This document shows, piece after piece, positions 4,421 through 48,143 of a stretch of DNA of 64,000 nt. How positions within the stretch are numbered: position 1 is the stretch's first letter; each line of letters begins with the position of its first letter. Made by a program: the position numbers and the translations under genes. The notes beneath the pieces are model-generated. The model was not told the DNA's origin and searched no databases. It saw only the letters and a list, made by a program, of their open reading frames with translations. This stretch comes from Candidatus Latescibacterota bacterium (lineage in GTDB: Bacteria; Latescibacterota; UBA2968): NCBI GenBank assembly GCA_965198115.1, contig OZ240241.1, positions 768,001-832,000 of the forward strand. The letters run 5' to 3'.

Positions 4421-5743
4421 GGGAAAAACAACAACTGCTTCGAGAAACCCGCCGATTTTTCGATGGGACGCCAGCGTCGGCGGAGCGCTGGCCGTGGTGG
4501 GTGGGCCACCTGTCGACGGTTTTCGAGTTCCGTCGACTTCGACAGGAGCGGTAACGCTCGACTGCCGGCCTGCGCCTTATTGTTCCGCCTGAGCTTACTG
4601 GAGGAGCGACAAGGCATTCTGCGGGATTGCGTTGGCCTGTGCCAGGAGCGCTGTGCTCGACTGGACCAGGATCTGCGCCCGCGTGAATGCCGATACTTCC
4701 TCCGCGACGTCCGCGTTACGAATCGAGGATTCGGAGGCCTGAAGGTTCTCGAATGCGTTCTCCAAGGACCGAATCGTGAATCCGAGTCGGTTTTGGATCG
4801 CACCGAGGTCACCACGGACCCCTGCTACACGATCGATCGCCAGATCGATCGTCGAGATCGAACTCCGGGAGCTCTCCAGCGTGGCGATAGAAACGCCCGA
4901 CAGGTTGAGGTTGACGCCGCTGGCTCGCATGTCGGTGATGTTCACCTCGAGGCGATGCACGGCGCCATCGTCCGGGCCGATCTGGAACGAACCACCTGTG
5001 CCGCCTTCGATCGTCAGTGTCAGTCCGTCGAGCTCGCCATCGCGATAACCGTCGATGGCGGGGGAGGTCAACGTCGCGGCTCGCTCTCCGGAAAGGGTCA
5101 GCTGAATACCGAGTCGATCGAAGTTGGCCACGACCGCGCTGCCGGTTGCGACGATGCCGCCTGTGGCGCCGTCGCTGTCGAGCGCGGGACCAATGTCGAT
5201 GGTCTGTGTCGCTATGCCATTACCAAGTGTAATCTGGCTGTCTGTGTTGCCACTGTCGATGAAGATATAGTTGCCCGCGTCGGCACCCGTGATCGAGACG
5301 TCGAGGATACCCGTCGTGGCCGAGGCCAGGGCGGTCGATGCGGTCAGATCCTCGCTTACAGAGTTGCCGAAGCCGTTGAGCAGCGAGATACCGTTGTAGC
5401 TGGTCGCGTTCGCGATGCGGTCCATTTCCGTGATGAGCTGGACCGCCTCAGCGTTCAGGGCGGTGCGGTTGCCGTCGTTGAGTGTGGACGAAGCAGACTG
5501 GACGGCGAGCTCACGCATCCTGATGAGGATCGCGCTCACTTCGTTGAGCGCACCCTCAGCGGTCTGAATGAGGTTGGTACCCTGCTCTGCGTTTCGGACG
5601 GCCTGGCGGAATCCGCCTAGCTCTGCCCGCATCCCTTCTGATACGCTCAACCCGGCTGCGTCGTCGGCAGCTCGATTGATCCGTATACCCGACGAGAGTC
5701 TTTCGATTCTCGTCGCCAGTTGCCGATTGTTAATCATCAACTG

Positions 5744-14571: not shown

Positions 14572-15991
14572 GGCTCTATCCGGGTTTCTCAACGGTGAAA
14601 CTATAGAATGACAAGGTCATAGATCGTTCCCTACGCTTGGTTGTGTGTGTAGGACAATCAAAGCGAAGGGGGTGCGACCTATGACCGGGAGCAGATTACT
14701 ATCGAAACTGCTGAGATTCAAGGGGTTCCGTGTTGTCAGCTGGTGGTTTGAGGGGAGAAGCTGTTTCGTCATCGCCGTAAAGCCCCATAAGAATGGTTGT
14801 TGTTGTCCGGAGTGCGGCCGTCGAGGTAAAATCGTCCGCACAATGCCCCATCCGCGTCGGTGGCGTGACATTCCGGTGTGCGGGTGGAGGGTCTGGCTTC
14901 TCTACCATCCTCGGGAGATTCGGTGTCCTACCCACGGTCGTGTGGTCGAGGAGATTCCGTGGGCGGAGCGGTTCTCTCGGGTGACGTATCGCTTCGAGTA
15001 TGCCATGCTGCGCTACTGCCAGACCATGACGCAGAAGGCGGCGTCCGAGTTGCTGCGCATCTCTGCCTCGACGCTGTCGGATCTCCTTCACCGATCCATC
15101 ACGCGGCTTCGTGAAGGTCATCGTATCCGAGGGCTCAAAACCATCGGGATCGACGAGATCTCCTACGCCAAGCGTCACAGGTACGCCACGCTCGTTTACG
15201 ATCTGGACCGCTCCTGCGTGGTGTGGGTTGGCCGCGGCAGGGCGCGTAAAACGATCGATCGGTTTTTCACAGAGGCTCTCAGTCCCTACCAGAGATCCAA
15301 GATCGAGTGGGCCTGCTGCGACATGAGCGAAGCTTACATCGGAGCCATCCAGGAACACTGTCCGAATGCCAAGCTGGTCCTCGATCGCTTTCACATCGTC
15401 AAGGCTCTCAATGCCGCCGTTGACGAGGTCCGTAAGGACCAGTGGCGTAAAGCTGCCCCGGATGAGCGCAAAGCCATGAAGGGCCTCCGATGGCTCCTCT
15501 ACCGGCACTCAGCGACACGCTCCAGAGGGGATACTCGGACACTCAAAGCACTGGAGAAGGCGAACTACCGAATCTATAGAGCCTGGAGACTCAAGGACGA
15601 GTTCGAGCAGTTCTGGGAATACAAAGCGCCCTGGGCTGCCGAACGCTTCCTGAAATGCTGGACGACGTCCGCACTCAGAAGTCGACTTGAACCCCTGCGA
15701 AAGTTCGTCAGGACCCTGCGACAGCACTTCTTCGGCGTCCTCGCATTCGTGAACACGCGTCTTACCAACGCCATCGCCGAAGGCCTCAACCGAATCGTCC
15801 AAATCGTCAAGAACCGAGCCAGCGGATTCCGCACACTCGACGCATTCAACGATATGATCTTCCTTACCGTCGGAGACATAAACATCCCTGAGCAGATTCC
15901 GAAGAGGTTCCGCACACTCTAACCGCGCCCCCATGCCAGGAACCACGGCACCTTCACCCACTTCATCTCGTTGAGAGATCCGGATATAGCC
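14572..15991 (+). mobile_element. ISL3-family insertion sequence, copy 1 (1420 bp)
   Basis: IRs GGCTCTATCCGGGTTTCTCAACG / GGCTATATCCGGATCTCTCAACG. Near-identical to 38379-39798. Degenerate 8-bp target duplication TTTTTTTT / GTTTTTAG. Confidence 0.95.
14681..15922 (+). CDS. ISL3-family transposase
   Basis: CPECG zinc finger, IGIDE, CCDMS, DRFHIV, TNAIAEGLN. Confidence 0.96.
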   Translation: MTGSRLLSKLLRFKGFRVVSWWFEGRSCFVIAVKPHKNGCCCPECGRRGKIVRTMPHPRRWRDIPVCGWRVWLLYHPREIRCPTHGRVVEEIPWAERFSRVTYRFEYAMLRYCQTMTQKAASELLRISASTLSDLLHRSITRLREGHRIRGLKTIGIDEISYAKRHRYATLVYDLDRSCVVWVGRGRARKTIDRFFTEALSPYQRSKIEWACCDMSEAYIGAIQEHCPNAKLVLDRFHIVKALNAAVDEVRKDQWRKAAPDERKAMKGLRWLLYRHSATRSRGDTRTLKALEKANYRIYRAWRLKDEFEQFWEYKAPWAAERFLKCWTTSALRSRLEPLRKFVRTLRQHFFGVLAFVNTRLTNAIAEGLNRIVQIVKNRASGFRTLDAFNDMIFLTVGDINIPEQIPKRFRTL

Positions 15992-38033: not shown

Positions 38034-38378
38034 GCGCTATGAGGATCTTGGGGCTGCGCATATATTGCGTGCATACGTCCTCCTGGCCAAAAACGACAAA
38101 CTCAAAGGAGACTGTCATGGCCACCACATCGATCCGATTCGGTGATATCGAGCATCTGACTGATCGAGAGACACAGATCTGGCTTCGCGCGATCGACTCG
38201 AAGGTCCTTGCTGCGGCGATGAAAGGCGCGAGACGACCTGTCCGAGACAAGATTCTCAAGAACGTCTCACAGCGCGTGGCTGTTCTGTTGGAAGATGAGG
38301 GGAAGCGGATAGGGGCCAGCCAGTCGCCCACCGCCCGAGCGCAGGGTGAGGCTCTTCTGATCGGACTGGTCATAAAAA

Positions 38379-39798
38379 GGCTCTATCCGGGTTTCTCAAC
38401 GGTGAAACTATAGAATGACAAGGTCATAGATCGTTCCCTACGCTTGGTTGTGTGTGTAGGACAATCAAAGCGAAGGGGGTGCGACCTATGACCGGGAGCA
38501 GATTACTATCGAAACTGCTGAGATTCAAGGGGTTCCGTGTTGTCAGCTGGTGGTTTGGGGGGAGAAGCTGCTTCGTCATCGCCGTAAAGCCACATAAGAA
38601 TGGTTGTTGTTGTCCGGAGTGCGGCCGTCGAGGTAAAATCGTCCGCACAATGCCCCATCCGCGTCGGTGGCGTGACATTCCGGTGTGCGGGTGGAGGGTC
38701 TGGCTTCTCTACCATCCTCGGGAGATTCGGTGTCCTACCCACGGTCGTGTGGTCGAGGAGATTCCGTGGGCGGAGCGGTTCTCTCGGGTGACGTATCGCT
38801 TCGAGTATGCCATGCTGCGCTACTGCCAGACCATGACGCAGAAGGCGGCGTCCGAGTTACTGCGCATCTCTGCCTCGACGCTGTCGGATCTCCTTCACCG
38901 ATCCATCACGCGGCTTCGTGAAGGTCATCGTATCCGAGGGCTCAAAACCATCGGGATCGACGAGATCTCCTACGCCAAGCGTCACAGGTACGCCACGCTC
39001 GTTTACGATCTGGACCGCTCCTGCGTGGTGTGGGTTGGCCGCGGCAGGGCGCGTAAAACGATCGATCGGTTCTTCACAGAGGCTCTCAGTCCCTACCGGA
39101 GATCCAAGATCGAGTGGGCCTGCTGCGACATGAGCGAAGCTTACATCGGAGCCATCCAGGAACACTGTCCGAATGCCAAGCTGGTCCTCGATCGCTTTCA
39201 CATCGTCAAGGCTCTCAATGCCGCCGTTGACGAGGTCCGTAAGGACCAGTGGCGTAAAGCTGCCCCGGATGAGCGCAAAGCCATGAAGGGCCTCCGATGG
39301 CTCCTCTACCGGCACTCAGCGACACGCTCCAGAGGGGATACTCGGACACTCAAAGCACTGGAGAAGGCGAACTACCGAATCTATAGAGCCTGGAGACTCA
39401 AGGACGAGTTCGAGCAGTTCTGGGAATACAAAGCGCCCTGGGCTGCCGAACGCTTCCTGAAATGCTGGACGACGTCCGCACTCAGAAGTCGACTTGAACC
39501 CCTGCGAAAGTTCGTCAGGACCCTGCGACAGCACTTCTTCGGCGTCCTCGCATTCGTGAACACGCGTCTTACCAACGCCATCGCCGAAGGCCTCAACCGA
39601 ATCGTCCAAATCGTCAAGAACCGAGCCAGCGGATTCCGCACACTCGACGCATTCAACGATATGATCTTCCTTACCGTCGGAGACATAAACATCCCTGAGC
39701 AGATTCCGAAGAGGTTCCGCACACTCTAACCGCGCCCCCATGCCAGGAACCACGGCACCTTCACCCACTTCATCTCGTTGAGAGATCTGGATATAGCC
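38379..39798 (+). mobile_element. ISL3-family insertion sequence, copy 2 (1420 bp)
   Basis: Same IRs as copy 1, with at least 7 substitutions relative to it. Degenerate 8-bp duplication CATAAAAA / CCAAAAAG. Confidence 0.95.
38488..39729 (+). CDS. ISL3-family transposase
   Basis: Differs from copy 1 at two residues (E/G, Q/R). Confidence 0.96.
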   Translation: MTGSRLLSKLLRFKGFRVVSWWFGGRSCFVIAVKPHKNGCCCPECGRRGKIVRTMPHPRRWRDIPVCGWRVWLLYHPREIRCPTHGRVVEEIPWAERFSRVTYRFEYAMLRYCQTMTQKAASELLRISASTLSDLLHRSITRLREGHRIRGLKTIGIDEISYAKRHRYATLVYDLDRSCVVWVGRGRARKTIDRFFTEALSPYRRSKIEWACCDMSEAYIGAIQEHCPNAKLVLDRFHIVKALNAAVDEVRKDQWRKAAPDERKAMKGLRWLLYRHSATRSRGDTRTLKALEKANYRIYRAWRLKDEFEQFWEYKAPWAAERFLKCWTTSALRSRLEPLRKFVRTLRQHFFGVLAFVNTRLTNAIAEGLNRIVQIVKNRASGFRTLDAFNDMIFLTVGDINIPEQIPKRFRTL

Positions 39799-40256
39799 CC
39801 AAAAAGGCTCGATCGTTTGGCCGCCACCGGGTTCAAAACCGAAGAAGCGGAAACTGACGAAGAAGTATCTGAACGAAAAGCAAAAGGCGCTCAGGGGGAC
39901 TGCGTCCCTGGAGACGCTGGAAGATCTGAACAAATGGGTTGCCAGCATGGCAAATGTGGCTCGAGCGGAAGGGATTCTGGAACTGCAGAAGGTCGATTGG
40001 GCGGCGATGGACGAGTTTTCCGCTACCGCGCTCAAGTTGATCGTGGATGGGACCGAGCCCGGGTTGGCGCGCGAGGTGCTGGAGAATCTGGCGGGATCGC
40101 GCCTACGGGAAGAGGAGACTCGATACCGGAAGGTGATCGAAGGGATGATCTCCATTCAGGCGGGTCAGAACCCGAAGTTTATCGAGCACAAGGTTGCTGT
40201 GATCTTCTATTGACGACCTGTGGCTTGACAAGGGTGTTGAAGCAGCAGCGTCTTAC

Positions 40257-47166: not shown

Positions 47167-48143
47167 TCACCGTGTGCCCTTGTCGACCAGTTTGGCAATG
47201 ACGTCGACGTTGCTCCGATCGATCGCGAGCGGGCCGGTGAGGATGTCCTGGGCGAGGCTGAGTCCGTACTCGAGGTTGAGGTAGAGGAAGACGACGGTCA
47301 GGTACCCTTGCAAGTAGGGTTGCTGGTCGATGGCCTGGATCGTCGTGCCGCTGCGAATGCGCTCGAAGATAGCGGCGCTCGTGTCGTGTGTCGTGTGAAG
47401 GATGTCGTCGCGACCGGTGTCGTCGACGAACAGGTAGTAAGCATCGGCTGGAAGCGGGCCCAGGGTGGCGATGGCGTTAGTCTGCGGGTGGCCCAAGAAG
47501 TAGTCCCCAAGCAGACCGGAGGATTGTTGATGTCGTTCGAAATGGTCAGACCGTCGACGGGTATGCCCGCGGGTTCCAGAATACTTCTGAATCCCGCGAC
47601 ACGCGCTTCGAGGCCGCTGTGGCCGACTTCCTGGATCGGACAGACGGCGCGCCTGATCTCGACGTTTCGACGTTCGGCTTCGGCAAGGATGGCCCTGGCG
47701 TTCGATTGCCCACCGAGGAATTCTCTGGCGCCGACGTAGAACAGCGTGGGCAATGCGTCGGGGCCACCCGAATTGGGGTCGGCGGTGTTCAGGACGACGA
47801 CGGGAACACCCGCTTCGCGCGCTCGTTCGACGCTCTCGCGGATGGCTTCGGGATCGGGGCACGTAATGCCAATCCCGTGGACCTGGCGGGCAAGAGCATC
47901 GTCCAGAAACACGGGCATATCCTCGATCGAGAAGGTCGGGTTGCTCAACCATTGGACTTCGACGCCATAGCGCTCACCTGCGTCCTCCATGCCTTTGATC
48001 ACGACGTTCCAGAACGGGTTGCCAGGCCCCCCGTGCGTCACGAAGGCGAAGCGATAGGGTTCGGCTGTGACCGCGGCGCAGAGATGCAGAATGGCGGCAA
48101 GTGACGTCAGGATGCAGCGGCGGAATCCCAAGATGATCTCCAT
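47167..48143 (-). CDS. Sugar (inositol/ribose-type) ABC substrate-binding protein, frameshift near 47528
   Basis: FVTHGGPGNPFWNVV in the first ORF; AIDQQPYLQGY...ILTGP in the second. Confidence 0.87.

Follow-up and report, generated by a model that had tools for sequence, protein, structure and literature searches.

A family of soluble proteins joining the FliG torque domain to a membrane-free MotA cytoplasmic domain, and its insertion-split copy in a Candidatus Latescibacterota genome

Several soluble proteins, including YcgR, FlgX, EpsE, and MotI, act at the MotA–FliG interface of the flagellar motor, with effects shown by experiment. The known brakes and clutches use other folds (PilZ, β-solenoid, and glycosyltransferase) and are not copies of motor surfaces. 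Borrelia FapA (bioRxiv 10.64898/2026.10.14.759253) is a soluble protein of another fold whose action at this interface is experimentally shown. The MotA–FliG contact is weak and membrane-bound, and has been captured structurally only through an engineered fusion. That construct (PDB 8UCS) is the structure nearest to the proteins described here. In it, the C-terminal domain of FliG (FliG_C) is tethered to MotA and lies between two cytoplasmic domains, being bound only between two adjacent MotA heads as in a pincer (PMC11302681). The Arg face of this cleft comes from one MotA subunit and the Glu/Asp face from its neighbour (PMC10374538). Here, we describe a natural gene that carries both surfaces in one polypeptide without a membrane segment. 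It lies in a 64,000-nucleotide stretch of a Candidatus Latescibacterota genome (assembly GCA_965198115.1, contig OZ240241.1, positions 768,001–832,000; hereafter, the window), where an ISL3 insertion sequence (IS) splits it into a FliG_C part and a membrane-free MotA cytoplasmic part.

Throughout, G denotes the FliG_C unit and M the 94-residue membrane-free MotA cytoplasmic unit; G000 is the host genome, G001 its congener, and proteins and loci carry P and L numbers. The window gene starts with the ATG at 38117 on the plus strand, 5 nt downstream of the ribosome-binding site AAAGGAGA (38104–38111, plus strand), and its open reading frame begins 7 codons ahead of FliG_C. The N-half (38117–38377, plus strand) is the C-terminal torque domain of FliG from the MFxF-like motif onwards (PF01706, E 8.3e-14, profile positions 19–80), as the initial annotation had read it. 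Beyond the IS, positions 39807–39925 (plus strand) encode the end of FliG_C (GSIVWPP), a 12-residue Lys/Pro linker, and a short basic helix, as judged from alignments and a model. WPP and KxYL in this linker region are conserved in family alignments A1 and A3, and residues 97–101 of the intact-orthologue model have a low predicted local distance difference test score (pLDDT). The M domain of ~94 residues follows (39926–40213, plus strand), and its frame ends with the TGA at 40211–40213. Excision of 1,428 nt (the IS plus 8) places 38117–38377 in frame with 39809–40213 and yields 222 residues, in agreement with the frame of about 222 residues with its own ribosome-binding site that had been proposed for this locus. 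The KGSI motif proposed at the junction is obtained when the right-hand target copy is kept (38377/39806), whereas a join at 38378/39807, as the initial annotation had it, gives KSSI; both are in frame. Removal of 1,427 nt, which leads into an alternative frame (P0003), was rejected, as that frame has no Pfam match and is not the frame of the orthologue.

Two proteins, P0006 (221 residues) and P0008 (224 residues), hold both halves intact, with 71% and 60% identity to the C-half of the window gene, respectively. The P0006 gene shares the neighbours of the window copy, an amidohydrolase/Rieske pair on one side and a PhyH gene on the other, and carries AAAGGAGG at the position equivalent to the window ribosome-binding site. 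P0006 is collinear with both window halves, and its junction reads V-K-D-G-S-I. Therefore, the join of the two halves is proven by an intact syntenic orthologue. In a codon comparison of each half with P0006, dN/dS (nonsynonymous over synonymous substitutions per site) is ~0.13 for both (0.143/1.084 and 0.196/1.475), with dS near saturation. Both halves are under purifying selection.

The IS (1,420 bp, 38379–39798, plus strand) is bounded by inverted repeats at 38379–38401 and 39776–39798 and encodes a 425-residue transposase (38452–39729, plus strand; DDE_Tnp_ISL3 PF01610, E 7e-68; PF13542; PF14690). The DDE transposase, the terminal inverted repeats, and an 8-bp AT-rich target duplication, imperfect at this site, are those of ISL3. 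The left flank CATAAAAA (38371–38378) and the right flank CCAAAAAG (39799–39806) differ at 3 of 8 bp. The fragments were rightly joined, but the two target copies are not identical, and the target duplication alone is thus no proof of the join. The host genome contains 224 full copies, against which the element ends were confirmed; exact 8-bp duplications flank 140 of them and are absent from the other 84. The mismatched flanks and these 84 copies would favour a union of two unrelated genes by recombination between ISL3 copies. This explanation is refuted by the collinear orthologue with the same neighbours; in addition, CCAAAAAG precedes no other IS end in the genome. Rearrangement between IS copies is thus ruled out by the orthologue and the IS-end survey, and we assign it virtually no probability. 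Short-read contigs (two runs from one sample) stop within the IS on both sides and contain no IS-free joint; that sample may be the one from which the genome was obtained. The copies, a second of which lies in the window at 14572–15991, are nearly identical, and many are in tandem or differ in their two flanks, a pattern suggestive of a recent burst and of rearrangements. Only 59 of the 224 copies lie in open frames, compared with 65% of random sites, a difference for which AT-rich target choice accounts in part. Since this element mostly avoids open frames, the insertion here fits a gene that is no longer needed.

At a limit of E 0.1, Pfam gives no match to the C-half. A profile built from 31 sequences of the family (alignment A3) matches C. 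sporogenes MotA (PDB 8UCS, chain 8ucs_C; E 1.2e-22) in two stretches, residues 76–143 and 221–246, and also matches PomA (E 4e-16). The window M domain corresponds to these two stretches joined, and MotA residues 144–220, the region of transmembrane helices 3 and 4 (TM3–TM4), are absent from it. Consistently, the true motA genes of relatives match the C-half (P0002) in two pieces with the TM3–TM4 region between them. The intact protein P0006 has no hydrophobic segment (highest 19-residue hydropathy, 0.98). The MotA-like character of the C-half and its lack of a hydrophobic segment, both claimed at the outset, are borne out by these results. The REVLE block had been thought to be joined directly to IEG; this does not hold, as 17 polar helical residues intervene.

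The family shares the fold of the FliG torque domain (PF01706; PDB 1qc7, 1lkv, 8umd) and its R281 and D288/D289 positions. In contrast to FliG, it has neither FliG_N nor FliG_M (no match to PF14842 or PF14841 in a Pfam search of the window gene chain), matches the profile only from position 19, has lost the GPVR motif, and is variable at K264. The protein would thus be unable to enter the cytoplasmic ring (C-ring) in the known way. With the cytoplasmic domain of MotA/PomA (PDB 8ucs, 6ysf, 6ysl, 6ykm, 8bri) it shares the helical head, the R90 position, the VDG aspartate, and the C-terminal EG..IQ.G.NP block. Unlike MotA/PomA, it lacks all four membrane helices and a MotB partner, joins head to tail by a polar helix, is variable at the E98 position, and is predicted to form a swapped dimer rather than a pentamer. 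By membership, the family protein is neither FliG nor MotA. It also differs from the 8UCS construct, which is engineered and membrane-bound, with full MotA5B2 and FliG_C at the C-terminus; the family is natural and soluble. No PilZ, EpsE, or FapA fold is among the listed Pfam or fold matches.

The AlphaFold model of the G-M protein P0006 (13 alignment rows) has a pLDDT of 83.7 and a predicted template modelling score (pTM) of 0.51. Its G domain superimposes on 1lkv with Z 14.6 and a root-mean-square deviation (rmsd) of 1.6 over 92 residues. Its M domain matches MotA only weakly (Z 5.0–5.3, rmsd 5.2–5.4, ~100 residues aligned), since a single 34-residue helix connects the head to the tail. The G-M-M protein P0016 (57 alignment rows) is modelled with a pLDDT of 94.5 and a pTM of 0.88, indicating that G is also placed with confidence. 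Here, one MotA chain aligns over M1 and M2 together (model residues 128–359; 144–156 residues aligned, Z 12.4–14.6, rmsd 4.2–8.4). As this is more residues than one M holds, the head and long helix of M1 followed by the long helix and tail of M2 read as head, TM3, TM4, and tail. G-M-M is accordingly predicted to be an antiparallel helix-swapped pair of M domains with a MotA-like head at each end. Matches to the FliG_C fold overall have Z 14.6–17.1 and rmsd 0.8–1.6, and residues 5–103 of P0016 align structurally with residues 233–331 of Salmonella FliG (99 residues), which sets the FliG register used below. G-M-M packs as a rigid unit in the model and the G-M monomer does not, which suggests that two MotA heads pair by swapping helices and clasp the FliG torque helix. 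Taken together, the evidence from the family favours a dimer latched by binding to itself, as modelled, rather than two free interfaces.

In this register, K36, R53, D60, and E61 of the window copy occupy FliG positions 264, 281, 288, and 289, whose functional roles in E. coli FliG we presume to be those of torque contacts. Thus, four of the five torque charges (264, 281, 288, 289, and 297) are kept, as claimed for the Lys, the Arg, and the acidic pair, and 297 is lost together with GPVR. In M, the R90 position is Arg (39962–39964), the E98 position is Gln (39986–39988), as also noted initially, and the VDG aspartate is retained. The counts that follow are over related sequences and hence not independent. 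Among 92 G domains that precede M, position 281 is Arg in 81, 289 is acidic in 77, and 264 is Lys in 33, with GPVR lost; the full-length FliG controls, 12 of 12, retain every one of these. Across 54 G-M-M proteins, an acidic residue at the E98 position is more frequent in M1 than in M2 (38 vs 19), a basic residue at the R90 position is more frequent in M2 than in M1 (49 vs 40), and the Asp of VDG persists in 53 of 55 M1 and 27 of 55 M2 domains (with Glu in 11 more M2). In single-M proteins, the R90 position is Arg or Lys in 32 of 33 and the VDG position Asp or Glu in 32 of 33. From these sequences, the charge split fits a putative two-fold particle with two clefts, of which G-M-M would fill one, with the acidic face from M1 and the basic face from M2. 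G-M dimers and G-G-M-M would fit the same particle with both clefts filled.

An exhaustive search with the C-half returns 521 clusters at 50% identity, 116 of them at E <= 1e-10. P0006, P0008, and many others carry both halves in one polypeptide, and profile and structural matches to MotA are found for the C-half, so the initial proposal of a fusion stands on both counts. An earlier word-index search for longer homologues came up empty, a sensitivity limit given how many the exhaustive search found. Architectures were assigned by profile for the best 150 of the 521 clusters, in a set of 151 proteins (the 150 without the window fragment, plus P0006 and P0008). They comprise G-M-M (45), G-M (30), M (23), M-M (22), M(2–5)-G (8), and G-G-M-M (3); the rest include three ordinary MotA-like proteins and two membrane MotA-like–FliG_C proteins, and some M and M-M entries are probably fragments. 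A domain bearing an L-K-K-Q-A-K-like motif, which has no Pfam match, starts 27 of the 151. The M junction helix has gaps in only 2 of 257 domains. In Pfam searches of 148 homologues, extracytoplasmic function (ECF) sigma factors are fused in 7 and SpoIIE (PP2C) phosphatases in 3. P0070, P0102, and P0120 carry four or five tandem M domains, followed by FliG domains in two of the three; five repeats equals the number of subunits of the MotA pentamer. Natural membrane-bound MotA-like proteins with a C-terminal FliG_C (L055:7306–8556, L056:2–1195, P0118, and P0130) have the layout of the 8UCS construct. A quick FliG_C tree (108 domains, 85 columns) resolves little, but it groups 9 of the 10 domains of M(n)-G proteins, together with three G-M rows, in a single branch (99), and the sequences thus suggest that the M(n)-G and G-M layouts may have separate origins.

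The M domain also has a natural complement. Loop-less MotA proteins of ~150 residues consist of the membrane helices without the cytoplasmic domain (G000:C1:4608365–4608874 (L091), L092, L093, L094, L100, and L047). They occur in 8 of 16 fusion carriers, counting L047, and in three other genomes, some beside two-component or ECF genes. As regards a split-stator partnership with M, their neighbours in seven loci are mostly signalling or unrelated genes.

Outside the phylum, look-alike clusters of the ESM Atlas come most commonly, among known phyla, from Thermodesulfobacteriota, Bacillota, and Spirochaetota (few members); a structure search of the Atlas returned nothing at TM >= 0.5. A genome-contig scan found only the query's own genome and one weak match; no plasmid match was found for the gene, and no RNA data set was listed as containing it. 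Within the phylum, we surveyed 140 genomes, each at least 85% complete, and considered the best 150 of 447 matches; G042, which shares the host's order, is a Latescibacterota genome. Some part of the G-M profile is matched in 55 of the 140; the other 85 have no match, and these also lack FliG and MotA matches. Among the matches listed, at least 16 relatives have a continuous G-M match, all in the class of the host. FlhA is found in 15 of these 16 carriers, which are kin, so that the co-occurrence is not independent. CheW is present in 12 of the 16, which rules out the protein as a substitute for chemotaxis. In G136, the flagellins and the G-M-M gene are both fragmented, a joint decay. In G054 (contig C8, L047:4212–9216), an accessory switch-like operon starts with G-M and continues with fliM, fliN, an FGE-sulfatase–FliG(N,M,C) fusion, a further fliN, and a loop-less motA. 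Also in this genome (C44, L048:7067–12674), a divergent G-M gene overlaps an ECF sigma gene, as does one in L046, and is flanked by rsmG and a yidC-like gene, with a dnaA-like gene nearby. We take the yidC-like and dnaA-like genes as such by eye, and the locus is likely close to the replication origin.

The genome of the host itself has no FlhA, MotA_N, or MotB_plug match. Compared with G001, it has a clean 14.8-kb deletion at G000:C1:4520149–4520152, which joins the first part of fliK to the last part of flhF and removes flhA-flhB-fliRQP, fliN, two motB, motA, flgE, and flgD; names in this region other than flhA and motA are presumed, the genes having been recognised by eye. Host fliF, fliA, and fliI are frameshifted or stopped, and four control genes are intact. 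With the window gene disrupted and flhA, motA, and motB missing from the host, the protein cannot act on a motor in this genome. Flagellar loss has probably left the host copy as a dead relic, and for the identity of the window copy together with its relic status our confidence is near certainty. Despite the absence of an export gate and stator, nine flagellin matches (one at window 5372–5743, minus strand), ten FliG_C matches, and five FliM matches are retained, and a FliM–FliG fusion lies at C1:6269855–6271414. As the initial annotation stated, the window gene is outside any flagellar operon; its neighbours are an amidohydrolase gene and a PhyH gene, with no motB beside it. No sigma-70-like site is found on its strand. 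Elsewhere in the window, a sugar-binding-protein-like gene of an ABC operon (47167–48143, minus strand) appears to be split over two frames.

We favour, at a little less than even confidence, the reading that the family protein reproduces the rotor–stator contact in soluble, latched form and probably serves as a decoy or sensor for the motor in flagellated relatives. We favour it because of the syntenic orthologue, the closed G-M-M model, the charge split between M1 and M2, the co-occurrence with FlhA, the joint decay, and the G054 operon. On loss of TM3–TM4, the helix leading into TM3 and the helix out of TM4 would have become one 34-residue helix, so that a second M domain would have to supply the tail needed to complete a MotA-like head. 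Proteins with one M, that of the window included, would then be homodimers with two G and two M, and G-M-M would be the single-chain version with one cleft filled. If the latch can open, either FliG_C would be released to compete for the cleft of the stator or the MotA heads would be released to cap FliG in the C-ring, and the opened latch would lower or report stator engagement. The ECF sigma and phosphatase fusions would read out the same open or closed state. An extended form of this reading, which we consider rather unlikely, is that the torque contact was cut from the motor to make a soluble, repeatable two-fold latch of two FliG_C and two MotA heads, opened by competing FliG or MotA; it would be a motor clutch and, in the ECF and phosphatase fusions, the first direct sensor of rotor–stator engagement for gene expression.

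Several observations weigh against action on a motor through such a latch. Of 49 genomes in which FlhA is substantially matched, only 15 have the fusion among the matches listed. G138 (92% complete) has four intact G-M-M genes and no full FlhA or MotA_N match; a short FlhA fragment and five intact flagellins are present. G001 keeps its flagellar operon, and the syntenic site holds a 50-residue relic with a stop, indicating that the gene is dispensable for flagella. Most family copies have unrelated, non-flagellar neighbours. A sigma-28-like motif, derived from 4 of 7 flagellin upstream regions, is found in none of 19 fusion upstream regions (two from the same gene; background 2.6%), so that membership in the sigma-28 regulon was rejected. 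As to the latch itself, we infer the docking face of FliG_C from the model, the predicted docking may echo the solved 8UCS contact, and the alignments behind the G-M and G-M-M models are of unequal depth. At the E98 position, only 18 of 33 single-M proteins have an acidic residue, and the window copy has Gln. Finally, the N-termini of four G-M-M proteins (P0023, P0028, P0032, and P0138) resemble signal peptides, as judged by hydropathy and by eye, and the M-M of the sensor phosphatases P0051 and P0067 lies just ahead of a membrane helix that precedes the phosphatase, hence outside the cytoplasm, where it could not touch the motor.

These exported and phosphatase-linked members are best explained if the closed fold of FliG_C with M-M is reused, independently of the motor, as a sensor or dimerisation domain for ECF sigma, PP2C, and other outputs, the flagellar link being only the origin of the parts. 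We regard this, the main rival reading, as possible, and given the exported-looking and signalling members a repurposed module is favoured for part of the family. The ECF and SpoIIE fusions, the G-M genes overlapping ECF sigma genes, the mostly non-flagellar neighbourhoods without a sigma-28-like site, and the decay of FliG residues outside the cis contact all speak for it. Yet a motor-independent module fits poorly with the absence of the family from the 85 genomes without FliG and MotA, with decay alongside flagellar genes in G000 and G136, with the fliM, fliN, and fliG genes of the G054 operon, and with a standalone 220-residue form that has no output domain. Alternatively, the protein could be an open bridge without self-binding, with its FliG_C in the stator cleft and its MotA head on C-ring FliG, cross-linking rotor and stator as a brake. 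The main charges retained on both surfaces, the flexible linker, and the unfixed domains of the monomer model would allow this. However, one MotA head is insufficient to hold FliG_C (PMC11302681), G-M-M packs closed, and the M1/M2 charge split fits a cleft in cis, so that we consider the bridge improbable. Slightly less credible still is a stable but functionally marginal by-product of domain shuffling. It would suit a lineage rich in paralogues of fliG, fliM, and flagellin, 10–20 matches per genome to FliG-like and MotA-like parts, and many odd fusions (FliM–FliG, FGE–FliG, AKR–FliG_C, and MotA–FliG_C), as well as the loss in G001 and the disruption in the host; it is at odds with the purifying selection, the 521 clusters, the fixed 94-residue M domain with its nearly gap-free junction helix, and the look-alike clusters in other phyla.

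Because M has no Pfam model, genes of this family are labelled FliG_C or hypothetical only, and a search of the open-access literature yielded no description of the family. The window copy is broken and its host lacks flagellar export and stator genes; what gives the finding its value is the family rather than this allele. As a natural source of soluble proteins with both faces of the motor contact, hundreds of diverged members, and an asymmetric charge pattern, it opens the energetics and specificity of that contact to tests on small proteins. If the proteins act on motors, they would be a new class of regulators built from the motor's own parts; if they do not, they would be a clear case of a machine interface reused in signalling, including outside the cytoplasm. 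Under the extended form of the latch reading, the family would also provide a ready-made soluble mimic with which to solve and measure the torque contact.

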